Of a stretch of DNA of 64,000 nucleotides, positions 4,301 through 55,378 are shown piece by piece; the stretch's first letter is position 1, and each line of letters opens with the position of its first letter. The position numbers were made by a program, and so were the translations under genes. The DNA lies in NCBI GenBank assembly GCA_046563655.1, contig CM102288.1, positions 6,324,001 to 6,388,000 on the forward strand, read 5' to 3'. Origin of the DNA: Yuukianura sp. NJ FZ-2021 (taxonomy: Eukaryota). Under the pieces are notes generated by a model that was not told where the DNA came from, did no database searches, and saw nothing but the letters and a program-made list of their open reading frames with translations.

Positions 4301-7300
4301 CTACCTCTTTTTATGTTAGCCTAACTTTTCTTCTGTCAAGGAATGAAGAGCTTTTGGAAATGAAAAAGAAGAAAGACAAACAGGCTGAATAAACATTTAT
4401 TCACAACCTCCGTCTCGGTCACGAGGAAAAGAAATTCCTGACCTCCTGACCTCACTTTCTCTTTTTCTCTCATCTTAGGTAATGGTTAACTTTTTAGTTG
4501 TGAAGCACAAAGATCAACATGCCAGTGGACTCCGTTGTCATAAATTTCAAAAGTTGTGTGCTTCCAAAAAAAAGTCATGTTTGCTTTCTAATATTTTAAT
4601 AACTTTCTCTATCTCATTTTTTTCACTTTCACTCTTTGCTTAAAGTCTCGCTTTCGACTAAAAACAAACTGAAACTTGAACTTTTTATTCATTTTTTTTA
4701 CTAAAAATTGCATAGTTACTTTTGCTTCTGTTTTGAAACTTTCCGCTTCTGATTTCCAAATAGGGCCGGAAAATTTTATAGGCTCGGGAAATATTTTTTC
4801 CATTTTGAGAATACGTTTTGTTGTGTAAAATCAGAAGTTTTAAAAAATTGAAGTAGTTTGAAATTTTTGATGAGAAGTTGTGTTTTTTTTCTCGAAATGT
4901 GAGATGGGAATGTGAGTGCGGCGGAGAGATTGGAGTTACAAATGTTGATGTTGGAGCCATTTGGTGGTGAAATCTTTTGAATAAATTCCAAATCCCACTG
5001 AAATTCCCTCTGGAGTTGAGTAGGTGTCGTTTGGGTGGTGGGGCGGGTGGGGCCGTGGGGCTCATAAAATGAGATGGGTGAGATTTGATGAGATAGTTGG
5101 ACACTTTTTCCAGTGAAAGTGAAGATGAAGTTTCTTTCTCTCGAATTCCGATTCGGCGTTTGTGTAATCCGGCCGAATCCAATCATTCCGAATCTTCCCC
5201 CATCCCTTCATTCCTTCTGCATCTTCATTCCACACGCCCTTGACTTCCATCAACTTGAGACACGGGCTTTAGAGAATCATAAGTCTGTCGCTTTTCATGA
5301 CTCCCATTTGCCTCTTTCATTAGACACAGAATACGCCAATCGATTAGGCACAATTGAGAGGAAAGGTTTCGTTATTCCATGGAAATTAATAGACTTGGGA
5401 CCAGGGACCACCAAAAGTGGCCATGCACTTCCTTTTTGTGTGACAGGAAAGTTAATGACACAGGAACATTGTGGATTCATTAGACTTAGGATGGGATTCG
5501 AACCCACGACTCTCAATTTCAAGGTTACAACGCATACCAACACGCTCATGTACATAAACGTTTTTTGTGGTTTCCCTATGCGAATTGTGTAGAACTGTTT
5601 CCATAGTCCTTGTGTTTTTTGAGCTGTATTGTCTTGAATTGTTTGTGATTGTGACATCTTAATGTACTTTTTGGGTTAGCCTCTTTTGTCTTGTGAGTGA
5701 AAACGATTGTGAATGATCCATTAATAATTGAGTGACACTAAAACGTAAGTGGGCACTTGGAAGGCTGTGTGAATGTGAGTGGCTTTTGGGGGAGAGTGTT
5801 TGAAGGGGGCATTAGTTGGCATTGTAAAATTCATGTAAGGAGTTAGGCTACGCAGTCTAATGTGAGGTTGTCAGTTGGGTTTTATGGGTCACTGGAGTGT
5901 GGTGATCAAAGGACTCATCTGTCTTTTCTGAGTTTTAGTCCGTGTGGACTAATTAAACTCGCACAATGGCTTCATTTCAAAGGAAAAAAACAGGGTCTGA
6001 CTAATTCTCGGAATAAAGACGACAGTCGGATGGAGATGTCAATCTCTCTCTTTCACTCTTTTTCCACAAATCTAAATGAGAATCACAGAATACACTAACG
6101 TAGTCTTACTTTCCCATGAAAGGCTTCCTTTTACTGCCGTTGGACAAAGGAAGAAGAGAAATGAGGTTCTCTTTGTGCGTAATTCTTGGGAGAAAGTTAG
6201 GGTAAACCTATATTAAAATGGAAATTAAGTTAGTTTTTTGGGTTTGCTATGATTTAGGAATAGGAAAGGACTAACAATTTGTTGTGTTAACGGTCATTTG
6301 TTGTGTCATATTTTAGCTATGAAAACTTATCACAAGAAAAAAAAACAGAAAACGAAAAAAAAACGTTTTTTTAACGAAAAACAAATTTTGAGTTTCTTCA
6401 ACATTAAAATTTCATATGCCAAGAATTTGCATAGACTTTCTTTTGAATGGAAAAAATATGCCATAATAAAAATCAATCAATTGGAGCACTATTTTGATAA
6501 AAAAATATTTGTGAGAAGTAGGTGAGTGGTACTGTGCTGAGGATAGAACTACGTCGTTGCTGGTTCGAATCCTGCCTAACTAAAGTCTTTTTTTTATGTT
6601 GAAAACTATAGCTTGGTTTGAGCAGTACACGTTGTGATGTACAGCACTAGGTTCAGTGGATGGTTAAATCGTGCGTGAATGTCGTTTGTTTTCAGCAGAG
6701 TGTGAAGGAAAGGGGGAATGGAAGTTTGAATTTGTCGTTGTGTCTGAGGCGGTATTTTTGAATTTGTGTTTGATTTGAGTGTTGGAGTGTTTAGTAGTGT
6801 AGGTTGGTCCTTCACACCTCATCAAATAGAGGGGAAGTGGCATTTGGAGTTATGAGTGTCCATGCTTTCACTTCCTCTCTTGTTTTCACCATCAAACCCC
6901 GAGTGTTTTTTGCACTTCAATGCACTGACCATCACCCTCACTTATTCCACCGGAATTGATTCTTTCTTCTCCAGGGAATACCAGGGTCAGACTCAATTTG
7001 ACACAATTTCAATTTCAAAAAAGATGAATCGCAAAGAGCGGGAAAAGACGAGTCTTTCAAATCCCACTTTCCCCCTTGCATCTATCAAACATGACGGGAT
7101 CACCATGAACTATAACCACAAGCCTTAACAACAAAATAACCCTGTTACATGCTCACTTTTTCTGAAAAGTTAAAATTTTTCAAACCTGATTATCGTGCAG
7201 TTTTTTAAACAATTGATAAAAAACGAATTTTTTTTTTTATAAATTTAAAAAAAATCTCAACTTGCCCCAATCGAAGCTCCAAAATCAAAGAGAAAGTTGA

Positions 7301-12917: not shown

Positions 12918-14758
12918 TTATTGTGCTTTCTTTTGGTCCTGTTCCCACTCCTTCCGGGTTTTGTATTTTTGGGTGGAGATTGTTCCAGCTTCCTTTAGTT
13001 TCTGAACTACTTGTTCCAGTGGACAATTGGCCAGGTCAGGCGCCTTGTCTTCTGCATAGGGTGCCAGAGGTTGGTTTTCTTCACTCAGAATCCACTCTTC
13101 AACTTCTGTAAATTTAGTACAAGTGATTTGCTCAGTCTCACTTCGAATTGTCCAGCAAATATCGTCCAGAGGCTACAAATCAACATGTTCAACTTACAAA
13201 ATCAATTTTTCACATTAGGGAGTTTGCATTTTATAAATCATTTATAGAATTTATAGAAAGTATAGAATTTACGGTGAGGAGTGGCGTCACTTTTTAAACT
13301 TTTTGGATTTGCAGAATTTATAAACACATTTATAAAAATTTGTAATCCATAAATGAGAAAACTTTGGAAAGTGACGTCACAGATTTCAAAATCGACAAGT
13401 GGCGGGAGCCGTAACAAAACGAATGACAGCGGGTGAACAGAGTGTTGCTAAATTGTATAAATTCTATGAATGTTTTGAAACGCAAACTATTTTTTCAAAA
13501 TTTGAAAAGTTGAAAAATTTCAAAACAGTTGAAAATTTGGTGTAACCAGGTCATTGTCGCCGTATCCAAAGGGGTGTTCAATTTCCCATCCGATTTGTAG
13601 GATTCCCAGCAAACAGAATGAAGTGAACAGGAGACTAAAAAAAAACAAATATTTTTTTAGACGTTTCTAATTTCGAATTGCTAATGCAAAACTGCGTTAA
13701 AAAAATTTGAAAAAAAAAGTTTTTAAAACAAACTTTCAATTTGAACAACCTTGGGATTGTCCAGTATTGCAAAGTGCTCACAAGTTGAAACGGAAGTGTG
13801 ATTAAGTACAAAGCAACGAAATGGTGAAGATGTGCTGCGTAGGAAAGAGGAAGCGGAGTACGCAGAATCCTCTCAAAGTGACCCAGAGTGTTGACGAGAG
13901 TTGAGACTGCGTCGTTGACGAAGTGTGTTGCTGATCCATCGAGGTTTCCGTTCATGACGACTGACTTGACATAGGTGGACAAGTGGTATGCAATTTCCAT
14001 GGGGATGTTAGTGGGCGTGGTTACGTCGTACGCCAAAATCCGGGCATTTTTGACATGCGTAGAAGCTTCCGGGTCGGCCGAACTCCCGCCGAATTTCGAA
14101 ACTCCGCCTATCAACGAGGCCATGTCGGCGTAGTCATACTTGTACTCTCCACGCAGGTAGTGCTTCGTAGCAAACGAAAACGCAACTCTGGAAAAAAAAT
14201 CCAAACAGTTTTTCAGTTTTCAATTTAGTTTTGAATTTTAAAGTTGAATTTCAAATTTTGAATTTGAAATTTTTGGCAATTTGAGACTTACGCCAAATTG
14301 ACGGCGGATTTCTTTTCGACGAGGTCCTTTGCTGAGTTTTCTTTGGCGAAAATCCAGACGCAGCGAGTGAATTGACGAATTGCGTTTGCCAAGTTGGTCC
14401 ACTGGCGTCGAGCTTCCAAGTACCTACAAAAAGATACCATTTTAGTTGAAATTTTAGTTAAAACTTCAGTTGAAACTTTAGTTTTTGGGTTAAAACTGGG
14501 TTAAAATTCGTGAATTCGTGTTGTCTTTAACAAATGGAGACTGTTTTTGTGTTACCGTTCATGTGCAATTGATGCTCTGAAGGCCAGTAGGAGTCCGAGT
14601 AGCACACCCAGAATTCCCGCCAGTGTTTGGTCGAAGATGATTGGTTCAACAGTATCATGGAATACACAAATTGCAACCGTGTACAGTGTGTACAGAATCA
14701 CTTGCCACCAGATCTTCGTGATCACGGTTCCACGGAGACGGAAGAACAGTTTGGCCAT
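12918..14758 (-). CDS. Bestrophin-family anion channel of fungal/bacterial type (UPF0187/YneE-like), 5 exons, about 371 aa
   Basis: Exons 14556-14758, 14292-14423, 13750-14187, 13547-13634 and 12918-13172 join in frame (1116 nt) with GT-AG introns. Motifs: LGLLLAFRASIAHERYLEARRQW, EKKSAVNLAVAFSFATKHYLRGE, FERILRTPLPLSYAAHL, GWEIEHPFGYGDNDLPLDDIC, WILSEENQPL. Confidence 0.9.
13220..13489. mobile_element. MITE-like element with imperfect terminal inverted repeats, in bestrophin intron 4
   Basis: Left end agtttgcattttataaatcatttatagaatttata resembles the reverse complement of the right end (agtttgcgtttcaaaacattcatagaatttata). Confidence 0.55.
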
Positions 14759-15810
14759 TTCACTCCTAAGTGCGTAGCTCGTCTGGAACTTAAAATCTCA
14801 TGAATTCTGTTTCCGCAAATTCCTCAGCAGAATTCCGTCATCCCGAGTCCTATAAAAGAAAAGGTTAGTGTTTTCTGTTTAGGTTTCTGCAAAACGTGTT
14901 TAGTCTATTTTTTTTACTTTTGAGTGAAAACCAGTTTTTCAGAGTGGCTATAGTAGACCTACCCATTTCACTTGCATAATTGACAAATTTGTCTTCGAAA
15001 TATTTTGAGTACGAAAGTTAAAGTCACGAGAGGTGACCTTCATGACAAAATTACTTTGAATTTAATTTAAATCTAAGTGATTTAAGATGTGTTTTTACTA
15101 AAAATTAACTTTTTATAACTTTTTTTTTAAAAAGTTGCAACTTTGTAATTTATTAGAGGAATATGCAAAAGAATCACACGTTCAACAATTTTATTCCGGT
15201 ATTTTGAAAAAGTGAAAAATTATAAATTGGTGCGAAACTACAAAAAAAACTACAATAATTTAAATTAGTTGATTTAAAGTTGATCGTTGCGTGAAAGCGA
15301 TTTTTGAATGCTTAAGATTAGTGCCATTTTAAGAAATGTTGGCACTTAAGAAATTTGGCTCACCGGTATTTTTTAAAATCTTGAACTTTTAAATGTTTAA
15401 AGTTAAATTTTAAAAATTTGTAATCTTATTCTAACCGTATTGTATAAAGTGATTAGGCCTTTGTGAAACTGCCGGGAGAAAGTGATTACTCCCGCTTAAA
15501 ATTAGTTAAAAGCTTAATTCCTAAATAGAAAATCTCCTTGGGTCTTAATATGGAAAGAATATTAGGGGTGGGTAAAGGCCAACCATTGGTTCGAAATGAA
15601 AAGGTTCGAAACTAATTGCGTAAAAATTGGAGCGAAAACGGTTTCAGGCTGACACAAGTAATGATGCTATGCTGCCAGCTTTTTCGACTCGGACTAATAT
15701 TTCCATTTCACTGTTGAATCAATTTAGTTGTTGATCCAATTGTTTTGGAACCAATGGCAGGGAACCTTGGGGTGATATGGATAACAATCATAAAGTAGAA
15801 AATGGAAAAG

Positions 15811-24800: not shown

Positions 24801-27343
24801 GAAAAGTGTAAGTTTGAGCCCACTTGACTTCTGCGTCCGTCGTCATGGACAACGTAGTTCTGGAGTGTCCACTGGAACTGGACTAACTGTGGATCCACTG
24901 TCACTCCGCATGGCAACACCACGTTTCGATCTCCATCTAGACGCGTCACCACTCCGCTCATGGCAACAAATTCAAAATCGGCTGTGATCTTGCCTGTAAA
25001 TTGGAGTTAATTTGTAAGTCAATTTACTTATCGGTTTCAGTAGTTGGTAAACAACTTTTTACGGTTTTACGTTTTTACATTTACAAGAGTGGCAGGAAGA
25101 TGGTCATATTTTGGCGGATGAGGATGGGGGGTAGGATTTTGGGGGATTTTGAAAGTAGTGGTGGTGTGTTTTGATTGAAAATGTTGTGCTGGGGAGATGC
25201 AGACGCTGTGTTTTGGGAAGGGGGAGATAAAACGTCTATGGTAATAAACTAGGTTACATTAAACCCCCTCTTTCTCCCTCTCAATTTCACTCTGGCACAA
25301 ATACCACTTATGTTTCTGCCGGCTAAAAGTGGCTGCAATGGAATGTCATAGTGACTAGCCGGCTAAAAGCGGCCAGAAGCAAAAACAACGCTGCCCAAAG
25401 CTGCTTAAAACTTTTGTTGTTATCATGGCTGTCAAAAATATGTATAAGAATTTCATAAATATCTCCTTCCACACCTTAGTTAAGCTTGGAAACGTTAACA
25501 AATTTCTGATTACTGCAAGCATTTCATTTCTGCCGGCTGAAACGTGACTTTTGAGCAGCGTATTTTGCAGATATTTTTGCTTCCTCTGATTATTATGAAG
25601 TTGCATTTTTGGCCGGCAGAAACTTAACTCTTGACTACAATACTTTGCACATATTTTCGATACCTCTAGTTATTACAAAATTTCTGTTTTTCTCGCAGAA
25701 GCTTGAGTTTTGACCAAAGAAAATTAAATTACTTAATTCCCGAAACGTTAAAAATTTAGTAGGAAAATCACTCTTACTAAATAACACAATTCCAAATTCC
25801 AAAAAGTTAAAAATTTAGTAGGAAAGGAAAATCACTCTTTCTAAATAACATAATTCTAAATTCCAAAAAGTTAAAAATTTAGTAGGAAAATCACTCTTTC
25901 TAAATAACATAATTCCAAATTCCAAAAAGTTAAAAATTTAGTAGGAAAATCACTCTTTTTAAATAACAATTCCAAATTACAAAAAGTTAAAAATTTAGTA
26001 GGAAAATCACTCTTTTTAAATAACATAATTCCAAATTACAAAAAGTTAAAAATTTAGTAGGAAAATCACTCTTTTTAAATAACATAATTCCAAATTACAA
26101 AAAGTTAAAAATTTAGTAGGAAAATCACTCTTTTTAAATAACACAATTCCAAATTCCAAAAAGTTAAAAATTTAGTAGGAAAATCACTCTTACTAAATAA
26201 CACAATTCCAAATTCCAAAAAGTTAAAAATTTAGTAGGAAAGGAAAATCACTCTTTCTAAATAACATAATTCTAAATTCCAAAAAGTTAAAAATTTAGTA
26301 GGAAAATCACTCTTTCTAAATAACATAATTCCAAATTCCAAAAAGTTAAAAATTTAGTAGGAAAATCACTCTTTTTAAATAACAATTCCAAATTACAAAA
26401 AGTTAAAAATTTAGTAGGAAAATCACTCTTTTTAAATAACATAATTCCAAATTACAAAAAGTTAAAAATTTAGTAGGAAAATCACTCTTTCTAAGTAACA
26501 TAATTCCAAATTCCGAAAAGTTAAAAATTTAGTAGGAAAATGACTCTTTTTAAATGACATAATTCCAAATTTCAAAACGTTAAAAAGTTAGTAACGAGCA
26601 TTTTTCGGATATTTCTGGCCGCTCTGATTACTATACAACTTCTTTTTTGCCGGCAGAAACGAGAGTTTTGACCAGAGTTTGTGGCGGAAAGGGGAATGTT
26701 GGAAGAATGCCGTGTTTAGTTGGAAAATAGACTGCGTACCCCTCGTGGGTTAAATTTTATGAGCGGGTGAGTCATTGGTCGTAAAAGGAGGGCTTTCACT
26801 TTGGTTGGAGTGAAAGTGGGCCATTAACATCCGAATGGAGGGGATTGATTACTGCGGGAGGAGGGAGGGGGTAAAGAAACCCCCTCCGATTGTTGGATCC
26901 ATGTAGCATTACACCCTCCTTCCAGATGCTAGTGTCTTTTACACATGCACTCCAAACTAGAATGAGCAAGGGGGAAGTTGAATGACTTTCACAATCTACA
27001 CAAATCCATCTCAGCTCAAAAGCTTTTTCCTTACACAAACACATTTTGCAAATGGATTACACACGGATTTACAACAAAAAGTTTCATTTCATACTCTTCA
27101 CAGTCAAACTTTTTTCAAAATTTTTTGGCTCTTTTGAATTTGGCTCTGAAGAAGAGCAATTTTCGAGTCGTTTTGGGACTGAAAGGTATAGGTTGAGGAA
27201 TGGAATTCAAAAATTTGTTGAAAGTGAGTGGACTTGGAAGTTTGAAATTTCAAATTTGAAATGGTGAAAATTAAAATTTTGGGATGCTTACCGAACAGAA
27301 TGAAGAGCGTGATTGGTTGAAGTAGGGCAGGAGTTGAGAACAT
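15811..27343 (-). CDS. PTK7: PTK7/off-track-like receptor tyrosine pseudokinase (signal peptide, multiple Ig domains, TM, pseudokinase), about 17 exons
   Basis: Signal exon 27292-27343 (MFSTPALLQPITLFILF|gtaag) joins in phase to an Ig exon near 24698-24993. Further Ig exons lie near 23.4k, 23.0k, 22.8k, 20.5k, 20.2k, 19.4k, 18.9k, 18.6k, 18.3k and 17.5k. TM exon reads TVWITLSVAAGYMLLVVGLMLWC. Kinase exons contain GHGNYGEV, HKDLATRN, ANP in place of DFG, and PLRWLSPEA..KSDIWSFG. Confidence 0.92.
25312..26660. mobile_element. Inverted-repeat-bounded non-autonomous element carrying an internal tandem array (PTK7 intron 1)
   Basis: gtttctgccggctaaaag at 25312 and ttttttgccggcagaaac ending at 26660 are inverted copies. 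Further copies of the motif occur near 25527, 25610 and 770. Confidence 0.55.
25747..26594. repeat. 59-bp minisatellite, about 14 units, with a 416-bp (7-unit) higher-order repeat
   Basis: Unit gttaaaaatttagtaggaaaatcactctttttaaataacataattccaaattacaaaaa. Diagnostic variants (cttacta, +5 ggaaa insertion, -2 deletion) recur 416 bp apart. Confidence 0.97.
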
Positions 27344-28329: not shown

Positions 28330-29250
28330 ACATCACTTTTCACATGTCAAAATCAAATTCAAATTCAAAATTTAGTTAAATACGGTCATAATTCAATTAA
28401 AATGTGAAAACCTTACTTGCAAACCTGCGAAAACTAAGTTTGTTTTGCATGAAAATTTTTGAAATTTAGGAATTTTTTTTTGGAAATTCACTCCCACGAC
28501 TGGTTGTGGTGTCAATAAATTTCCCAAGGTTCTATGCCACTTCAAGGTCACTTCTCAACTCAAAAGTTAACTATGAATAAAATTTGGGAAGTTCCGGCGA
28601 AAAGTTCATTCTTTTGAGGAAAATTTAAAAAACAAATCTTAAATGGACTAATTTAGATTAGTCGATTTAACTTTTGGGCATAATTATCCTGGTTTTCGCA
28701 ATCACCAGAAGTGTAATTGAGTTCGATGCATATCACTAACTTCACAGAGGAATTCCAACGCATCAGTCTAAAAAAGAGTTTTTTAGTTCGAATCTTGAGG
28801 TAAAATCGAAGAAAATATTTCGAGGTTTTAGACAGGAAAAATTAAAAACGATTAAAGTTTTCCTTGATAAAGCGTTAACGGATTGTACATTTCCAAAATT
28901 TTGAAATTGTAGAATGTGGGAATGTCCAATTCAAAGATTTTATTTTCCGCATCATATTTGCATAAGAATTTGTTTTTTCACACCGTTAAAATCCATTTCG
29001 CAACAAATCTCAAAAAATCTCCATGAAGTTGTGGGAAAACGTTTCCTAAATGAGTGTAAAGTTACGACTTATTCACAGTTTACTAAAAAGCTTTTTGTAT
29101 AAAAGCTCAATTTTCAAAATTCAGCTCCACCACAAAGCTTCAAAACCAAAACCGTAAAGAGTACTAAAAATTTCTTAAAATTTTTATACCAAAACCTGTT
29201 TTAAATTATTATACTAAAGAATTCGAAAAATCTTAAAAACAACTAAAACT

Positions 29251-30585
29251 ATGCAGTGGACATTGAAGATCGATTTGGGGTCAATTGAGAATTCCAAGTA
29301 CGGGAGTGCCTTAAACCTCAAAGCGGAGATTCCGCTGTTACCGAATTCCACATTCGAGTATCCCGATATCGTCAAGGACACTGAGCGGTTCGACCGAATT
29401 GCTTCGAAACTGATCACCAAATTTGAAAAGTTGGCTGGGAAAACGAAGGATGTTAAATTTGAAAAGCAGATTCGGTCTGCCATTTGCATGGCAGCATGCC
29501 AATCGTCCCAGAGCGACTATGATGAGTGTGCTGGACTGCGGGCCATGATCGATGTCAACGTGATGGGCTTTGTGATCGACGATGTCGTGGATGCGATGAT
29601 TCAAATTCAAAATGGCACAAACAACTACAAAATGTTCGGCGCGTTTGCTCAAAATTTGGGCCGTGAAGATTTGGACTACGGGAAGTACATGGACGGAGTG
29701 ATCGGAAACACGAATGGGTCCGAAGATGCCGGTTGTCTGGACGAGTTCTTCCGTCTGTTTGGAATGTTCAACGCATGTGCAGTGGAACTGATCAAACATG
29801 CTTCCAACCATGACGAAATCCAGCATCTGAAAAGAGAGTGGATCGACTGCGCAGAAGCACACTTCTTCCATTTGGCTGGAAAACTCTCTCCTGCTGAGAA
29901 CTTTTCACACATCAGCTACAGCCGGCAGCTGAGCCAAGCTGTACATGGAATGCGTTGGACACTTGCCCAGGTTCTGCTCTACACTCCAGGTCAGTTTTGA
30001 GTAGAACATGATAGCTCAGTGGTTAGAACTCCTCCCGGATTGAACAGATGTGGGTTCGAGTCCCACTCGGTGCTTTAATTTTTCTGCACTGTCATTCTTT
30101 GTCTCTCTAGTAGTAATGTGAGCCCTGAATCTGACAAATCCAGAAATCCTAAAACTGGAAATGAAATGAGAATTTTTGAAATGTTGGCAGGGTGTTACGT
30201 ACCGGAGGATGTGAGAAAGACGCTGCTGTTCCGAATGATGATGAATGCACATGGAAATGGTACTGCATTTATCAATGCTATCATTGGTATGCGTAAAGAT
30301 GTGGAAGAGGATACTCCGATGGACACTCCGATCCTGCATAACGTCATTGGCCGTGGAATGACTCTGCAGCAGGCTTTTGACGATGCTGTGAACTGCATGA
30401 AAGCGGAGATTAGTGACCTGCACTTAGCTCTGGAGATCATGGGTGCTACGTATGGAGATGTCGAAGGAGTGGACGAGTATCTCAAAACGGTGGAACTCAA
30501 CTTCATGGGTACTTGTTTGTCTTATGCTTTGGCACCGCTCATGGCACGATACCCGGGTGTGTCCGTCGTGGCAACCAAAGAGTAG
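29251..30585 (+). CDS. Microbial-type class I terpene synthase-like protein, 2 exons, 377 aa
   Basis: join(29251-29989, 30191-30585) is in frame with a phase-1 GT-AG intron. It has DDVVD (DDxxD), a candidate pyrophosphate-sensor R in YSRQLSQA, an NSE-position variant NAIIGMRKD, the GMTLQQAFD helix, and a C-terminal RY. Confidence 0.8.
30004..30073 (+). pseudogene. tRNA-like sequence (pseudo-tRNA or SINE head) inside the terpene synthase intron
   Basis: A box TAGCTCAGTGG at 30012 and a perfect T-arm gtgggTTCGAGTcccac; anticodon and acceptor arms are degenerate. Confidence 0.65.
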
Positions 30586-30758
30586 GATTTGTCTCTTTAC
30601 ATTCCTTAGGTAAGTTTGATCATGAGTTTCATGAGTAATTGAAACATTCGATTAATCTGAACCCAAAAGAGTAAATTTGACATGATTTATTTACCGAATT
30701 CATGAATCACCTGATAATAAAAGTGGAGTTAATTAAAAGTAGGAAAGAATGAGAGTGT

Positions 30759-31239
30759 CTAGTACTGTTTGGTGGCCAGGAAGGCTGAGATGGACTGTAC
30801 TTGTTGAGTGATTTGGAAGGCAATGTCCTTGGCAATGTCGTACTTGTCGTCTTGATCTTGAGTGGCGTTCATGAGGTCCACACGTCGCATGATCTCAGCC
30901 AGTCTCCTTGGGGTTTCAATCCAGTCGAACGTTGGAACCGTTCCTTCTGCTGGCTGACGAAAAGTGGCAGATTGATTGTTCTCTGCATCTGAAAAGGCAT
31001 AAAAAGTGGTGAAAACGGCAGGATAAATTAAACTTTCTTGACCTAAGCTATGCATAAAACATCGCAATTTGAATAGCAGATGTATCTTCGAACAATGGTT
31101 AGAATTAAGCGATGATCCATGCAATGTCATGTAATGCTTGGTGAACCTTACCGCCACCGCCAGACTTTGTCGTGGTAAACTCCACCAGCTTCTTCAATTT
31201 TTGTCCCAGATCAACGGCTTGCCCTTCCTTTGAGGTCAT
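30759..31239 (-). CDS. Small hypothetical protein, 2 exons, about 105 aa
   Basis: Exon 31152-31239 (MTSKEGQAVDLGQKLKKLVEFTTTKSGGG, G|gtaagg) joins exon 30759-30988 (ttttcag|AT GCA..) in frame. No family recognised. Confidence 0.6.
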
Positions 31240-32011
31240 TTTGGTTCCTTGACTTGGCAATCGTTCAATTAATCGATTAATTCAGGAAGAAGAAACACGG
31301 AGGGAACGAATACGAACGTTGTACGGTCCAGTTGTTCTTCAGATATGGATTTGAAATGGAGAAATCATCAGCGTGGTTGTGGTTGACAGGACGGAACCCC
31401 AATTATTGTAACCATACAGTTTCACTAGTAAGTGAAGTGGTAAGTGTATTGTTATACTGTAAGGTAAAGTAATTGTATTGTTACATTGTTAGGCAAAGTA
31501 AGCGTAATGCTGAAGTAGTATTGGACTTATCTTGAAGTTAAAAATTTCACTGCTACTAACTGGAGGTGGCTACCCTGGTGAGTACAATTAGTACCGGTAA
31601 TGCTTGAGTCAAGCGACTCATGAGTACTTGATACGGAATTTCACACTATTCTGAGGAATAGTGAACTCATTTGAACTATATAGTAATAGCAGCTGTACGT
31701 ATAGTTCAAATCAGACACCTTTATACTAAACAAAAATAAGAAAACAAACATTAAGTTACGTCAAGTATCCGTCATCGCTCAATTAATTACTAATTGGCTT
31801 CACTACTCAACTATGTAGTAAGGTGAAAGTCCTATTCATCTGGTGTCTTTGGTCTTATAGGGTAAGGTTAAGTATGTTCAAATATCCAAGACCTCATTTT
31901 TATCAACGAAGTTTCACATTCTGAATTCTATTGGTTTTACAGGACTAGAACTGCAGCATACTGTACTAAGAATGACCATTGGCTAGGAACCAGGACAGGG
32001 AAAGGACCAAT

Positions 32012-35000
32012 ATGGCGGAGGAAGGGGAAGAAGACAAGTCTTTTGCCAAGTACCTCAAGAAGCCTTTGTACTACTGGGTAAGTTCAAGCTAAGTAATCAG
32101 AGTACTCGCTCTTTAGTTGTAAGCTTATCACTTTAATCACGTTGTTTTACTCTAATTTCTGATCCAATGGTATTATTGTTGTTCCAGATCCAGCCTTTCG
32201 TTAGCTTTGACCTATTACGGGAGGACACTTTAGCCGCTATCGCCGGGAGCGATGTTCTACAACAAGTCCTCCAGTTTCTGTAATTTTACTTGCAACTTCT
32301 GAACAATTGAACTAATTGAATAGTTACTTGATGTTAACACTGTTTATGTCTTCACAGGGAGATACAAACAGCTGAGATACCATCAGATAGTTGGTTGTCG
32401 TCACTTCCTGGATCATTTGATGAAGACACGGCAAGTGTCCACTCTGGACGTCCAAAATTCGACAATAATATTAGGGAGAAGACCAGGAAGCTGAGTGGAA
32501 TTTGTAAACTCGTACGTCGGCACTACTTTGACCAATTTGACATTTTGCTCCTCGTTCCACCCCCAAACGTTCTACAAATTGCCACTTTGTGTGAAAAATG
32601 TGGAGTTGCTGAAATGGAAAACGTGCTTCGTTTGCTCCTGGGAGCAGCGGTTTACGGACATAAGAAGCAGGAAGTCATGAGGACAATCCGAGGGTTCCCG
32701 TTTGGTGTTCAGGAACAACTTATACAGGAAATCAAACAAGTAAGTCAATCAATCAATTTTTATAGCAAATATTGGAGGTTCTAACATCAAAAAACACCTT
32801 TAAAACCTTTTACTCTCTATTTTTAAGATCACGGAGTCACCTGACTTGGTTAAACTGAAGTCGTGGACTGACTTTCGTGCTTTGCCTGAAGCTGACCAAC
32901 AACAAGTTTATGAAAACATGAAACGACAATGTCAACTACTCGTGGGAGAGAGGGATGCGTCAATTGAAGTAAGAACCAACGTTTAATTAACATTTAAACC
33001 GATAATTATTTCGAGAGACTCGTATTTCAAGCATTTACTTTATTCAGCGTCTACGATTTGTGGAATTCGGTTTTGGAGTGACAAAGTGTGAGGCGATGGG
33101 GAGCCATCTGAATCAATATGACTTCAACAAATCACACGACTTGGACAAAGGAGACAAAAACAACTGTGGAACTCTGAGACAACTTAAGGAAGAGCTGTAA
33201 GTTTCCTTTACGTTGATTATTCTTATAATTATTATGAATTAAAACTTTTAATTACGTGTAATTACTATTTAAAACTTGTTTTTTTGACAGGTCAGAGAAG
33301 TCTGAGTTGCTCAAAGAATGTCGTCATGAGTTGGAGGTTACCAAATCAAAATTAGACGAACTAAACCAGGAAGTGAGCATAAACAGCTGATTTGCCAACC
33401 ATAAATAACAATTTTACCGCAACATGTAACTTTCACTTGCTAACTTAATCTTTTGATTTTTTTTAGATGAACGAAATGCGGAGTCAGTTGAAGAGCTACA
33501 AGTCGAGTCGTGATGAATTTGATATTTTGAGGGAGGGGCAAGAGAAGGCTGTTCGACTCGAAGCCGAACTGAGCCGAATGAGGAAGAAGTTGGAGGAGTC
33601 TGAGCAATACTACGAACAGACACAGATTCTGGAGAATGAAAACAAGTAAAACACACATTATTTAAGTACTAGCTAATTGATTTCACAAAACTTTACAAGA
33701 TTTAACTCCTGTTTTGTAGAGTGTACCAAAGGAAACATGCGATTCTGACTGACAGGATCAACGTCCTCACAGTGGAGAACGAGCGGCTGGAACTTTCACT
33801 TCTGACCCACCAGTCCCACCGGAGTCCATTTCCACACATCAGTTCTCCCTTCATTTCATTCGAACAACCACCTACAAGTATTTCTTATACACCGAATCTC
33901 AACAGTTTCACGGAGGAATTACTGCTGGACTCGGATGGAGATAGAGCAGCTACCAAAACGGAAACGAAACTGCAATCTCTGGATTCCAGTCCTGATGTTC
34001 AAAAAAATGAAAAACCTTCGTCGTCAAAACCAACAGCTCCAGCATTGAACTGTGAAGAATCAGAAAAGCGAAATGTGGAATGTGAAACGCCAACTTCAAA
34101 GTTACGACCACAAAAAGAGAGAAAAAACGCTGGACCGAAACGGAGTAAACGCAGAAGCGGTGCAGTTCATGGGAAGAGGACCAAGAAAACATCGCTGTTT
34201 CCTCCAGCGAAGGTGACGCTGCAGAAAGTACGAGCACTGGAACAACTGACCACAAATGTGCAGCAGCATCCGCCATCTGAGGTAAGAAAGTTTGAATGTA
34301 CTAAAAAATTTTATGTTGTTTTTATTAAATTTTTTAGTATTCGGATTTGTGAGGGATGCCTAATCCACTGATTTTTTTGACAGGAACCGAAATTCATTAC
34401 GTCCATGGACAAACACGGCATTCGAGAACCTGAAGTCATAGTTACCTCCTCCATTGGATCCAAAGATGAGCAACGGACAGAAGAAACTCATAGAAACTCG
34501 GACTCCAAGCACATCATCCATGATTCTGAGAGTGACGCTGATGCCGAGCTGAGTCAAAGTCCACAACGCAGCGATTCGGATTTTGAAATCCCAAAGTTGG
34601 GCCGACGTCCAGCGCAGGTCCAACAATCGCTTGAACCAGAAGGATTTGGAAGTGAAGATGAACTGTTCTTCGTCTGCTCCACCAATCAGGCTCCGTCCAT
34701 CGCCGTCCATCCGTCCATCGCCAGAAATGTCAGAATCTTCGGTTCGTCCAGAGACTCATCCGTCCTATTTCGTCCTAACCAGAACCAGTCTGGACGAGAC
34801 ACACTTTTGGGCAGTCACTCACTCATGTCACATCCCACTGTCCCACTTTCTGTCAACATTCAGTTGAAGCAGAGACAGGAGTTGACTGTAGGCAGAGACA
34901 TAGGTGGGATTAGTTCAATTCAAAACCATCCAATCACAGATCAGGATTCGTTCATCGCCCGGGAGAATCGAACTGGCGTCTGCGGAATCACGACGGACGA

Positions 35001-48878: not shown

Positions 48879-51702
48879 CTAAACGGACCAGTATATTTTC
48901 TTGCGATGAAGCCAGATTCCGATCATTGTCCAAAGTGTAGTAGCCCAAATGTTTTCTACGAGACGGATGAAATGTGTTTGCATTTGACCATCGGACCATC
49001 TCCAAGGGAGACACGAACTCAGAATGCTGTGTCCCATGTACAGTAGAATGGAGTTCATCCCGGACTCGAAAAATGGGGACCCCGACCACCACTTACGCAT
49101 GTCAATCACAAAGTACATCACGCACAGAAGGACGTTGGCAAAACAGGAAGTCACCAACACAAACGAAATAGACCTGAAATTACACAAACCAATAGTTCGA
49201 TTATGAGAACGATTACTTGGCTTAAGTCAGGAGGTAGTAATTGAATCAAAGTCTTTTGATGTGTGATGGGCTTACCACAAGTTTTTGTTTACTGGAATCC
49301 AACCTCCAGTCATCTTGCCATGACACAAAATAGCTCCGATTCCTCCAGCCACCAACCCCCAAATGCCCCATCTTTTGAGTCTGCTCCAAGGTCGAGGATA
49401 CACCAACATCGTGGCTCCCGTTTGAACACCAAGCCACGTCTGGAAAATGGAGGTCAAAGTGCCGAGGAGCCCTTCAGGGTCATAAGGACCGGTCAGGAAC
49501 GTAGCCCTTGCAGTGGGGTGGTTGTAAATGTGACTGGCGCTGAGGACTTGCAGATCGATGTAGCCAGCAGCTCCGCCGATGCAGTGTGCAGTAATACTTG
49601 CATTCATGTTCAAATCCAGTCCGCCCGGCCCCAGGTAACCTCTGGAAGATAAACAAGAATTCATAAACCAGAATTCATAAATATGAATTCATAAGCAAGA
49701 ATTCATGAACAAAAATCTTTAAACTAGAATTCGTCAAGAATTCATTAAAATGAATCCGTAAACGACAACTCATCAACAAGAATTCATAAAGAAGTCATAT
49801 AAAATTCATAAAGAATTGATAAAGAATTCATATAAGGAATTCATAAACAAGAATTGACACAGAAGAATTCATACAAGGAATTCGTAAACAAGAATTCGTA
49901 TGATTCATGCACACAACACATCAAAATTTCAGAAAGGTATTGAAAATCATAGTTGCTTGACATACGTTGGACATCCTGGAACAGGAAGGAAGAAGGTGAG
50001 CAGACAATGGGCCACCACAATTCCCAGAATGGGTATCCATGACACCCAAAGCACAGAAATATCTTGGACGGCTGCTCTCAGTTTCCCCTACAATTTCAGT
50101 TCAAAAATTTTCAAAATCCATACTTTGAAGCGATTTTTAAGAAATGAGCGATTACTAACCGCAGTTCCATCTGGTTTAGAAAAATTGATGTGCATGAAGC
50201 AGAGGACGAGCGTTGAGCAAACGAAGTAGCAAACACCGAATCGCTGGAGCACTCCAGGCACACGTAGATTTCCGTATTCACCAAACTGAACTGGGCCTCC
50301 CAAAGAGTTGAGCAAAATTCCGAGTCCAAACAACTTCAGTGATCGGATGACGATGGTTTTGAAAATCCGAATTCGGGGAGTTGCCCGTTTCACTTGGGAT
50401 TTGATCGACAAAGGGATGCACACACCCATGATCCACAGAAACCTTGGCAAAACACAAATACATTTCTATGAGTTCTTTTCAAAAACGGTGGTTTCAAAAA
50501 ATCACCTTGTTGGAAAAAGTTCTAGAAAAAAATAAGTTTTTTGCAGTTTTGTTTATGCTGAATTGACATACCAGGGAAATACTAAGTCAGCCACAGTGAG
50601 TCCGTCCCAAATGGCGTGTTCAAAAAACGTGTATTTTCCTCCTCCGTAGTTTACAAAGATCATGACCACGATGGAAAGGCTAAAAAACAGAAACATCGTC
50701 AGGTCAAAGGTCAAGAGATGTTATCAAATTCTGGAAAAGTGACTTAAGTACCCTCGAAATGTGTCCAAAGATCTCAATCGCTGTCTGTTGTGTTGACTAG
50801 ACTGTGTCGCAGCATTTGAAGTTGATCCTGCGTCTTTTGGTGGTTGTGACGATACAGATTGGGATCTGGAAGAAGATGCTTCTCCAGTGGAAGGCGCTGC
50901 TGGAGAAATTGGAAAATTGTCGCTGGAGGAGGATATGGACAGTTGACTTCGTTTTTTCCATCGCTTCCAGCATAGGGCTATCACAAAGGCGGCTAGTCCA
51001 TGAATCAAGAATAGGCAGACGGCAATCACCAACGCTACAATAATTGTCAAAAACTTCACTTTAAAACAAATCATTTTGAAAAAATAGTACAAGTTGTAAG
51101 TTTTTGTTTCGTACGGTAGTAGATATTGACCGGTTGTGCTGCGACAGTGACGACACAACTGGCGGAAGTTCCAAAGTTTCCAGTAACATTGACATTGTAC
51201 ACTCCAAACTCCTGGAAGGACGGGGCTTGTCCAAACTCACAGAAAGTATACCTAGAATCACATTCACAACATCACAATTGATTCAATTTGTGATTGATTA
51301 ATTAATTGATGAATTAGTTAGCTGACTCGTCATTCTCGACACTGCTGGAAGTATTGGATCCTTCAATCCTGAATCGATACGTCGTGGGCCATGTCGTGTC
51401 AATCGTCGTGGACCGATCTCCAAGGTGGTAAGGCACTTCGTCAACTCTTGTAAAGGGACACTAAAAAAACATACGTATAAAAAACGAAATGAACTTTAGA
51501 AAAAAAACGTTTTAGGAGTGTTTTTTTAGAAAGAAACGTTTTGTGGACGTTTTACCGAGTAACACGACGATGTGAGTGCGTATAACCAGAGAGGACTGGA
51601 GTGACTGGACGTGACGTTGAGTATGGCTTGGTCAACTTGAAGTTTTGACAGGTCAAAGGTCCCAACCTGGTCTGCCGCGGGTTGTTCTGTCCATGACCCC
51701 AT
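48879..51702 (-). CDS. HGSNAT: Heparan-alpha-glucosaminide N-acetyltransferase, copy A
   Basis: [84 protein letters not shown]. Confidence 0.95.
49660..49900. repeat. Degenerate AAGAATTCATAA-type short tandem repeats in an HGSNAT-A intron (shorter version near 53460-53595 in copy B)
   Basis: Many imperfect gaattcata units. Confidence 0.75.
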
Positions 51703-52654: not shown

Positions 52655-55378
52655 CTAAACGGACCAGTATATTTTCTTGCGATGAAGCCAGATTCCGATC
52701 ATTGTCCAAAGTGTAGTAGCCCAAATGTTTTCTACGAGACGGATGAAATGTGTCTGCATTTGACCATCAGACCATCTCCAAGGGAGACACGAACTCAGAA
52801 TGCTGTGTCCCATGTACAGTAGAATGGAGTTCATCCCGGACTCGAAAAATGGGGACCCCGACCACCACTTTCGCATGTCAATCACGAAGTACATCACGCA
52901 CAGAAGGATGTTGGCAAAACAGGAAGTCACCAACACAAACGAAATCGACCTGAAATCACACAACAAACGATTAGTTCCATGAGAACGATATTAACCGTCA
53001 ATTCATTAATCGATTACTTGGCTTAAGTTAGGAAGTAGCAACTGGAGCAAAGTATTTTGATGGGCTTACCACAAGTTTTTGTTTACCGGTATCCAGCCTC
53101 CGGTCATCTTGCCATGACACAAAAGAGCCCCGATTCCTCCAGCCACCAACCCCCAAATGCCCCATCTTTTGAGTCTGCTCCAAGGTCGAGGGTACACCAA
53201 CATCGTGGCTCCCGTTTGAACACCAAGCCACGTCTGGAAAATGGAGGTCAAAGTGCCGAGGAGCCCTTCAGGGTCGTAAGGACCGGTCAGGAACGTAGCT
53301 CTTGCAGTGGGGTGGTTGTAAATGTGACTGGCACTGAGGACTTGCAGGTCAATGTAGCCAGCAGCTCCGCCGATGCAGTGTGCAGTAATGCTTGCATTCA
53401 AGTTCAAATCCAGTCCGCCCGGCCCCAAGTAACCTCTGCAACATAAACAAAATTCAAACGTGAATTCATAAAAAAAATCCGTAAATGAGAATTTATCAAT
53501 TCATGAAGAATTGACAAAGAAGAATTTATAAACAAGAATTCCTAAAGAAATCTTAAACAAAAATTCATAAAGGATTCCTTAAAAAAAGAATTAGTACGAT
53601 TCACGCACAGCACAAATCAAATTGTGTAAAAAATCATTGAAAATCGTTGCTGCTCAACCTACGTTGGACATCCAGGAACAGGAAGGTAGAAAGTGAGAAG
53701 ACAATGGGCCAGCAGAATCCCCAAAATCGGTATCCATGGTACCCAAAGCACAGAAATATCCTGGACGGCTGCTCTCAGTTTCCCCTACAATTTCAGTTCA
53801 AAAATATTTCCAAAATTCAAAATTTTGAATCGCTTTTGAAGACTTGTGATTGTGAGAGATTACTAACCCCAGTTCCATCTGGTTTAGAGAAATTGATGTG
53901 CATGAAGCAGAGGACGAGCGTTGAGCAAACGAAGTAGCAAACACCGAATCGCTGGAGCACTCCAGGCACACGTAGATTTCCGTATTCACCGAACTGGACT
54001 GGGCCTCCCAAAGAGTTGAGCAAAATTCCCAGTCCAATCAGCTTCAGTGATCGGATGACGATGGCCTTGAAAATCCGAATTCGGGGAGTTGCCCGTTTCA
54101 CTTGGGATTTGATCGACAGAGGGATGCACACGCCCATGATCCACACAAACCTTGGCAAAATACATAAACATTTCTATGATTTCTTTTCAAAAACCGTGGT
54201 TTCAAAAAACCTCGCTTTTGGAAAAAAAATGAAAAAAAGAAGTTTTTTTGAAGTTTTGCTGAATTGACATACCAAGGAAATAGCAAGTCAGCCAAGGTGA
54301 GTCCGTCCCAAATGGAGTGATCCAGAAAGCTGTATTTTCCTCCTCCGTAATTTCCAAAGATCATCAACACGATGGACAGACTGAAAAGAGTTTCGTCAGG
54401 TCAGAGATCATCGTAGATTCTCAAATTTTGAAAATTGGCGTGATTACCCTCGAAATGTGTCCAATGATCTCAATCGCTGCCTGTTGTTCGAAGGAGATGC
54501 TGCGACGACTGGTGTTTGCGAAGACAAAGATTGGGATCTGGAAGAAGATGCTTCTCCAGTGGATGGCGCTGCTGGGGAAACTAAAAAATTGTCGCTGGAA
54601 GAGGATATGGACAGCTGACTTCGTTTTTTCCATCGCTTCAAGGTCACAGTGCTCACACTAGCCACTAGTGCCAGAATCGTGTACAGGACGACAGCGATCA
54701 CCAAAGCTACAATTGTCCAAAACTTCAATTTAAAAAAAATGATACTTTTGAACAGAATTTTGAAACAATTGTACAAGTTGTAAGTTTTTTGTCGTACGGT
54801 AGTAGATATTGACCGGTTGAGCTGCGACAGTGACGACACAACTGGCGGAAGTTCCAAAGTTTCCAGTAACATTGACATTGTACACTCCAAACTCCTGGAA
54901 GGACGGGGCTTGTCCAAACTCACAGAAAGTATACCTGGAATCACATTCACAACGTCACAATGCAATTTGTCATTGATTAACTAATTGATTAATTAGCTGA
55001 CTCGTCATTCTCGACGCTGCTGGAAGTATTGGATCCTTCAATCCTGAATCGATACGTCGTTGGCCATGTCGTGTCAATCGTCGTGGACCGATCTCCAAGG
55101 TGGTAAGGCACTTCGTCAACTCTTGTAAAGGGACACTAAAAAAACATACGTATGAAAAACGAAATGAACTTTAGAAAAAAAAACGTTTTAGCAGTGATTT
55201 TTTAGAAAGAAACGTTTTGTGGACGTTTTACCGAGTAGCACGACGATGTGAGTGCGTATAACCAGAGTGGACTGGAGTGAGTGGACGTGACGTTGAGTAT
55301 GGCTTGGTCAACTTGAAGTTTTGACAGGTCAAAGGTCCCAACCTGGTCTGCCGCGGGTTGTTCTGTCCATGACCCCAT
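52655..55378 (-). CDS. HGSNAT: Heparan-alpha-glucosaminide N-acetyltransferase, copy B (tandem duplicate)
   Basis: Same exon series and motifs as copy A; FGNYGGGKYSFLDHSIWDGLTLADLLFPW. Confidence 0.93.

Follow-up and report, generated by a model that had tools for sequence, protein, structure and literature searches.

Terpenes found in animals were long credited to symbionts or to the diet and, to our knowledge, terpene synthases encoded by the animal hosts themselves have been known only since about 2018, from a handful of lineages. The gene considered in the present work, which lies at positions 29251 to 30585 (forward strand) of a 64,000-nucleotide stretch of DNA from Yuukianura sp. NJ FZ-2021 (GenBank assembly GCA_046563655.1, contig CM102288.1, positions 6,324,001 to 6,388,000; this entire stretch is called the window below), invites comparison with several described systems, of which the type I terpene synthases (T1TSs) of sponges are taken first. 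Of the characterised sponge enzymes, 12 of 13 carry the motif NDXXGXXXD together with an RY pair, seven sponge enzymes are active sesquiterpene synthases, and the sponge synthases are detected only weakly by standard hidden Markov models, or HMMs (Wilson et al., PNAS 2023, PMC9992776). In Acanthella cavernosa, NDxxGxxxD and RY are present in 9 of 10 T1TSs and one intron-bearing member shows NNxxGxxxD with SY, and the sponge synthase genes described are mostly intron-less, none of them being clustered with tailoring genes (Adv Sci 2026, PMC13483135). Synthases of the microbial type are also reported from arthropods, viz. trombidid mites (PMC6275457), sciarid flies (PMC11665903) and springtails, where at least one intron is present in 152 of 277 genes and the enzymes have NDXXSXXXE, the canonical form of the triad, and their sensor arginine is conserved (PMC13638087). 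An earlier description of the present gene, made from its letters alone (the sequence-only reading), had named octocorals and some mites as the animal groups possessing such enzymes; that list is outdated, as sponges, sciarid flies and springtails have all been published (PMC9992776, PMC11665903, PMC13638087). Based on the results described below, we consider it about 65% probable that the product of the gene in the window is a class I terpene synthase with an alpha-domain as its single domain, belonging to a very divergent and very small family; the gene itself resides in the animal's own genome, where it is transcribed and spliced.

A phmmer search in 1.84 billion cluster representatives, with exon 1 as the query, gave three matches, from which the family of this protein was recognised. 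P0003 (367 aa, expectation value (E) 8e-23) is matched over its full length, while P0005 (414 aa, E 6.6e-4) is 26% identical to P0003. The third match, P0004 (273 aa, environmental, E 2.6e-5), shows 35% identity over residues 5-94 of the window protein only and then diverges; a frameshift or a gene-calling error in a copy of some family member may account for it. All of these relatives come from environmental or run assemblies. When the spliced window protein was aligned with P0003 and P0005 (pairwise identities 33, 24 and 26%), only 50 columns proved invariant and these include the key residues of three motifs, viz. D110, D111, V113 and D114 in the aspartate-rich metal-binding motif DDVVD (residues 110-114, positions 29578..29592, + strand), N275, A276, I277, G279 and D283 in NAIIGMRKD (residues 275-283, 30274..30300, + strand), which stands in the place of the NSE/DTE metal-binding triad, and both residues of the RY pair (residues 366-367, 30547..30552, + strand). 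Judged from the alignment, the conservation of these three motifs exceeds chance. In the window protein NAIIGMRKD lies 165 residues after DDVVD and 91 residues before RY, and all three proteins have the same motif order, with 158-165 residues from DDxxD to the N and 88-91 from the N to RY. In bacterial and fungal class I synthases the distance from N to RY is likewise about 90 residues, whereas that from DDxxD to N is about 125-140 residues, i.e. shorter than in the window family.

The second metal motif merits separate consideration, as the sequence-only reading had presented it as rewritten. NAIIGMRKD retains the ligand positions 1 (N) and 9 (D), but position 5 is occupied by Gly and position 2 by Ala. 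Active sponge and plant enzymes also show Gly and Asp at positions 5 and 9 (PMC9992776), and a Gly with a final Asp forms the published signature of the sponge synthases (PMC9992776, PMC13483135), so that this part of the rewriting is not unique to the present gene; the Ala at position 2, however, is new. The S-to-G and E-to-D changes, to judge from the motif comparison, agree with what is seen in the sponge enzymes and are consistent with activity, and the Ala alone is new and is fixed in the family. More generally, the window protein resembles the sponge T1TSs in being animal-encoded, in its predicted single alpha-domain, in its DDxxD, its mid-motif Gly and final Asp and its C-terminal RY, as well as in its weak detection by HMMs and in lying outside any cluster of tailoring genes (no P450 or similar tailoring gene was found by Pfam in the window), while its intron represents a rare state among the sponge genes described (PMC9992776, PMC13483135). 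It differs from them in having Ala at motif position 2 (NAIxGxxxD) where the sponge enzymes described have Asp or Asn, and the likeness is one of described features. With the arthropod synthases it shares a PF19086-type gene in an animal genome, often with introns, but unlike the springtail enzymes described, the window family has neither the canonical NDXXSXXXE nor an invariant sensor arginine (PMC13638087). With the octocoral terpene cyclases it shares a class I, animal-encoded enzyme with an RY pair (PMC9992776); those cyclases, set beside the window gene by description, form a separate clade and some of them are clustered with tailoring genes (PMC13483135).

The assignment to the terpene synthases is based on several weak lines of evidence that converge, viz. 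the Pfam matches of the relatives, an NCBIfam match, the ESM features, the motifs described above and the Foldseek results. The top Pfam match of P0003, of its near-copy P0006 and of P0005 is in each case PF19086 (Terpene_syn_C_2), with E-values of 3.4e-4, 3e-4 and 2.7e-3, respectively, and the match covers the stretch bearing the NAIxG motif. P0005 also matches the NCBIfam model for isoafricanol synthase (E 0.027). In the ESM Atlas feature comparison, exon 1 of the window reached a score of 0.92 (173 of 256 features shared) and 25 of its 30 matches belong to three sets. Two of these sets are marked by PF19086 (77% of members) and TRI5 (26%), while the third, which is the largest (13 matches), is auto-named an aristolochene synthase family and its members share no Pfam family; for P0003 (score 0.95, 207 of 256 shared) all 30 matches fall in PF19086/TRI5 sets. 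The AlphaFold model of P0003 consists entirely of helices, some of which end at DDIVD, at NAIVGFKRD and at RY, and when it was compared with the PDB by Foldseek, 39 of the 40 rows listed are titled as terpene synthases or cyclases, the title of the remaining one (8ii9) being silent on this point; the top row has E 0.089 and probability 0.82. These leads all point towards the bacterial and fungal class I sesquiterpene and diterpene synthases (PF19086; e.g. aristolochene, pentalenene and epi-isozizaene synthases), which have the same motif order, although the window family differs from these enzymes in falling under the Pfam cut-off, in lacking a sequence match in the PDB and in showing NAIxGxxxD in place of NDxxSxxxE.

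Against this assignment, a number of observations have to be weighed. The window queries for Pfam, NCBIfam and the PDB were the individual exons rather than the spliced protein, and with these the Pfam search at E up to 10 returned DUF4734, UCR_hinge and DUF7750 and nothing else, none of them below E 0.08, while NCBIfam and a phmmer search of the PDB returned nothing. The PF19086 scores of P0003, P0006 and P0005 (20.9, 21.0 and 17.9 bits) are all under the gathering cut-off of 23.7. When the family profile was compared with PDB sequences, only adenylosuccinate lyase (E 0.5-0.7) was found, and P0003 and P0005, used singly against the same sequences, gave no terpene synthase. The structural comparison is a weak test of the fold because the models are poor, and they are poor because only four sequences could be aligned for the modelling. 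The model of P0003 is of low confidence (mean predicted local distance difference test (pLDDT) 47.0, predicted template-modelling score (pTM) 0.40), no Foldseek match reaches E 0.001 and the TM-scores are 0.28 or less; the exon-1 model of the window is likewise of low confidence (pLDDT 39.5, pTM 0.42), and a terpene synthase appears in one of the 44 Foldseek rows listed for it, at rank 38, in a list that is itself meaningless. The Ala in place of the usual Asp at position 2 of the second metal motif also counts on this side, as do the two arginines that could serve as a sensor, since R225 is replaced by K in P0003 and R235 by E in P0005 and neither column is invariant; the candidate sensor arginine of the sequence-only reading is not confirmed by this alignment.

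If these observations are given their full weight, the protein could be interpreted as a helical protein that is specific to its lineage and has no kinship with terpene synthases, and in which the motifs and the weak matches are coincidental. The failure of the window's own sequence to pass any curated or conventional threshold and the poor quality of both models are in keeping with such an interpretation. However, it would then have to be accepted that separate weak leads agree by accident, viz. Pfam on two relatives that are only 26% identical, NCBIfam, ESM on two proteins and 39 of the 40 Foldseek rows listed, and that the motif residues are invariant and stand in the canonical order with the canonical spacing from N to RY. 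We regard this interpretation as improbable, and a terpene-synthase fold as very likely, supported though short of proof. In terms of the check by HMM and fold that the sequence-only reading had proposed, the relatives lean to PF19086 and the Foldseek rows are mostly cyclases, but all of these results are under the cut-offs and the window exons have no match. Its term "microbial-type terpene synthase" can be retained in the sense that a PF19086-like, single-domain class I enzyme is the best reading, although the support from the fold is weak.

A terpenoid-synthase fold does not by itself establish a terpene cyclase, and the protein could instead be a pseudoenzyme, a binder of prenyl diphosphates or a prenyltransferase-like protein that has kept the metal motifs. 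Such proteins would share the fold indicated above. However, three class I cyclase motifs, inclusive of RY, are invariant at identities of 24-33%; DDVVD is present once in the 377 residues, rather than the two such motifs expected of a prenyltransferase, and the second metal motif is NAIIGMRKD, which is not an aspartate-rich DDxxD; and the Pfam and ESM leads all concern cyclases. Further, of the nine differences between runs listed in exon 1 (the best-supported rows), six are synonymous, and none of the three that are not (K53E, V68A and H187P) affects an invariant column. Similar considerations apply to the insect terpene synthases derived from isoprenyl diphosphate synthases (IDS), which share with the window gene (there as a prediction) the making of terpenes in animals, but IDS proteins have two aspartate-rich motifs, and neither the window nor the relatives showed a polyprenyl synthase match in Pfam at E up to 10. 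The non-cyclase interpretation is on these grounds unlikely, and by analogy with the described enzymes we judge it probable that the protein acts catalytically as a terpene synthase. If so, a prenyl diphosphate would be bound by the single alpha-domain, the protein's size and the sponge enzymes suggesting farnesyl diphosphate (FPP) as a first guess. Two Mg2+ ions would be held by D110 of DDVVD, and a third by N275, D283 and a water molecule replacing the missing side chain at G279; the diphosphate may be gripped by R366/Y367 with the help of another arginine, R225 or R235, and its loss would give rise to a carbocation that the helical pocket would steer to a linear or cyclic terpene. We infer these steps, together with the activity, the substrate and the product, by analogy with class I terpene synthases.

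The structure of the gene is clearer. The start ATG (29251-29253) is the first ATG following an in-frame stop at 29215-29217. Exon 1 (29251..29989, + strand) carries codons 1-246 in full and one base, the first, of codon 247, the intron (29990..30190, + strand; 201 nt, phase 1) is of the GT..AG type (GTCAGT...TTGGCAG), and exon 2 (30191..30585, + strand) encodes the rest of codon 247 to residue 377, with the stop codon TAG at 30583-30585. When the exons were joined by their coordinates in a script, 1134 nt were obtained, viz. 377 codons and a stop with no internal stops, and the intact two-exon open reading frame (ORF) of 377 aa with one GT-AG intron, DDVVD, NAIIGMRKD and terminal RY that had been claimed earlier is borne out by both the coordinates and the joined translation. 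The untranslated regions as given by contigs of the run X4 are minimum estimates, the true end of the transcript not being visible in the contigs: on the 5' side the region extends at least over 29162..29250 (+ strand), as record 19 (591 nt) begins at 29162, and no ATG is found in 29162-29250; on the 3' side it extends at least over 30586..30626 (+ strand), as record 20 reaches 30626. X4 contigs cover in total 29162-29752 and 30193-30626.

The splice model is supported by two independent results, viz. the alignment with P0003 and an X4 contig. P0003, which is uninterrupted, matches the window in tblastn over exon 1 (29275-29991, E 1e-30) and exon 2 (E 7e-29, 44% identity), and in the alignment exon 1 runs up to ...TP and exon 2 resumes from the next-but-one column, so that the one residue left corresponds to the split codon. 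In the X4 contig (626 nt, depth 12.7) the intron is absent, 29989 being joined to 30193 with two letters between them and the frame kept; these two letters are AT, versus GG in the window (30191-30192). Of the four runs compared, X4 is also the only one with such joints in neighbouring genes: six of the GT..AG type lie in the gene at 32.3-33.7 kb, and one of 169 nt lies in that at 30.7-31.5 kb. X4 thus behaves as complementary DNA (cDNA). It should be noted, as a point that weakens the case for expression, that the label of X4 is a guess ("DNA?"), that it is not on record as RNA and that the evidence of expression is the cDNA-like behaviour of this one run. Taken together, these results support the view that the gene is intact, intron-bearing, transcribed and spliced, in an animal genome. 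This genome is compact, the introns seen in the window being 74-201 nt in length.

The intron itself contains a tRNA-like element (30010..30068, + strand) that matches the Rfam tRNA model with 21.6 bits (E 0.031), which is under the gathering score of 29, and in which ARAGORN recognises no tRNA; over the window as a whole, no RNA gene was recognised by ARAGORN or by Rfam at its gathering scores. In the runs X1 and X2, the bin 30006-30272 has a depth of ~6300-6600 versus ~100-440 in the other bins of the gene, i.e. ~30-fold, and loose contig ends are abundant at 30033-30107. Because of this ~30-fold depth and the many loose ends, the element is interpreted as a dispersed host repeat, although a second copy of it is not found in the window.

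These observations also bear on the question whether a microbial gene has been stitched into an animal scaffold by contamination or an assembly error. We found no positive evidence that this occurred; what can be said in its favour is that the contigs of X1, a DNA run, are short at the gene (278-595 nt) and none bridges into a neighbouring gene. However, the depths of the X1 contigs on the gene (165, 203 and 184) equal those of its flanks (216 and 195 upstream; 189, 166 and 128 downstream). A spliceosomal intron with a genome-wide repeat and a spliced transcript contig are likewise not expected from such an error, and the X4 transcript contig of the next gene begins ~76 nt past the stop codon of the synthase gene. 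Further, the gene is also present in X5, a run of a second study, with ~97.5% identity (16 differences in 641 letters and 10 in 441; records 25 and 26). The neighbouring ORFs, which the sequence-only reading had correctly called ordinary animal genes, match in Pfam ECSIT_N/ECSIT_C, Ig domains with PK_Tyr, HOOK_N, Mre11_DNA_bind, Mito_carr and RRM, and in a PDB sequence search HGSNAT (E 1.6e-23) and U2AF65 (E 5e-17). For the neighbour that the sequence-only reading had named PTK7, the identification extends to the Ig domains and the tyrosine-kinase domain. An artefact of this kind is extremely improbable, and the results show that the gene belongs to the animal's own genome. The next gene (30661-31463, - strand), for its part, is convergent with the synthase gene; its X4 contig is spliced across 30986-31154 and its ORF has no Pfam match.

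Residence in the animal genome has to be distinguished from origin. It had been suggested that the gene was probably acquired horizontally, but this suggestion finds no support here, as no microbial relative was found, the composition is host-like and the intron carries a host repeat. In favour of a recent transfer from a bacterium or a fungus, followed by domestication, it can be said that the predicted single-alpha-domain architecture is of the PF19086 type, that P0003 and P0005 are uninterrupted ORFs and that a Bestrophin_2 locus, of a family that Pfam describes as bacterial/fungal, lies 15 kb away. However, no microbial protein was found within E 0.001 of exon 1 among the 1.84 billion representatives, nor by the family profile among 8000 scored candidates, and a tblastn search of P0003 against 72,556 plasmids gave two chance rows only. 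The coding sequence has a GC content of 0.48 and 0.57 at third codon positions (GC3), as compared with 0.43-0.50 and 0.40-0.54 in 16 neighbouring ORFs, i.e. its composition is at the upper edge of the range of its neighbours and is not foreign-looking. In addition, the synthases published from sponges, octocorals and springtails are described as each forming a clade of their own, of unresolved origin (PMC9992776, PMC13638087). A recent transfer is unsupported and improbable, while an ancient transfer and vertical descent would both be compatible with these data.

The Bestrophin_2 locus (13523-14797, - strand) consists of three ORF pieces in different frames, which are collinear on the Pfam profile ("Bacterial/Fungal Bestrophin protein"): profile positions 6-78 (E 3e-10), 122-244 (E 2.7e-22) and 241-273 (E 7e-6). 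From its sequence it looks like an intron-bearing gene. Other features of the window are as follows. A 59-bp tandem repeat (25735-26593; 14.4 copies, 92% match) has a depth of 10^5 to 3x10^6 versus ~200 for single-copy DNA in the DNA runs X1 and X2, and because of this depth it is interpreted as a major satellite of the genome. An HGSNAT-like gene with several exons is present in two closely similar copies in tandem, at 48879-51236 and 52655-54980 (- strand); an exon of these is the source of the match noted above, which is to human heparan-alpha-glucosaminide N-acetyltransferase, and the translations of the two copies are near-identical in places. Over the HOOK-like gene (31631-32892) there is an X5 contig of 1269 nt with a depth of 170 and 79 differences, as compared with an X5 depth of 3-7 elsewhere, and this contig may derive from a more abundant related organism or from a repeated copy in the sample.

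Further relatives were sought in several ways. A search with P0003 returned only P0003, the family profile, with its 8000 scored candidates, recovered only P0003 and P0005, and a word-indexed search of 5.8 billion proteins with the window exons gave nothing. No match to P0003 was found in metagenome contigs. A degenerate DNA pattern for MMM-x10-NAIxGxxxD identified three loci in metagenome contigs, all of which are chance occurrences (a poly-Asp run and the opposite strand of bacterial ATPase genes). A search with PF19086 of a Rhodococcus plasmid and control genomes, for reference synthases, also gave none. Among about 15 billion proteins, the family is so far known from three environmental sequences and, in addition, from the gene in the window.

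The above results may be explained if these proteins represent a new and deeply diverged clade among the class I terpene synthases of animals, characterised by the invariant NAIxGxxxD and by the conserved N-terminal segment SKYGSAxNLK, which lies below the thresholds of HMM surveys and of which the window gene would be the first genomic sighting. We advance this proposal tentatively, the odds being somewhat against it. Horizontal transfer is not documented on the present evidence, and the interest of the gene lies elsewhere. It shows how such enzymes escape standard searches, as no curated family was matched by the window's own sequence and yet DDxxD, the second metal motif and RY are kept and the gene is expressed. 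It also provides a concrete candidate for expression and assay, whose value is in its extreme divergence and near-orphan status, and a natural test of how far the second metal motif, whose positions 2, 5 and 9 are here Ala, Gly and Asp, can change with activity being kept, and it can serve as a seed for a profile with which more hidden animal synthases may be found. If the proposal of a new clade is true and the host is not a sponge, then a further animal lineage would be added to those with terpene synthases of their own, and surveys would then seem to underestimate how widely such enzymes occur among animals.

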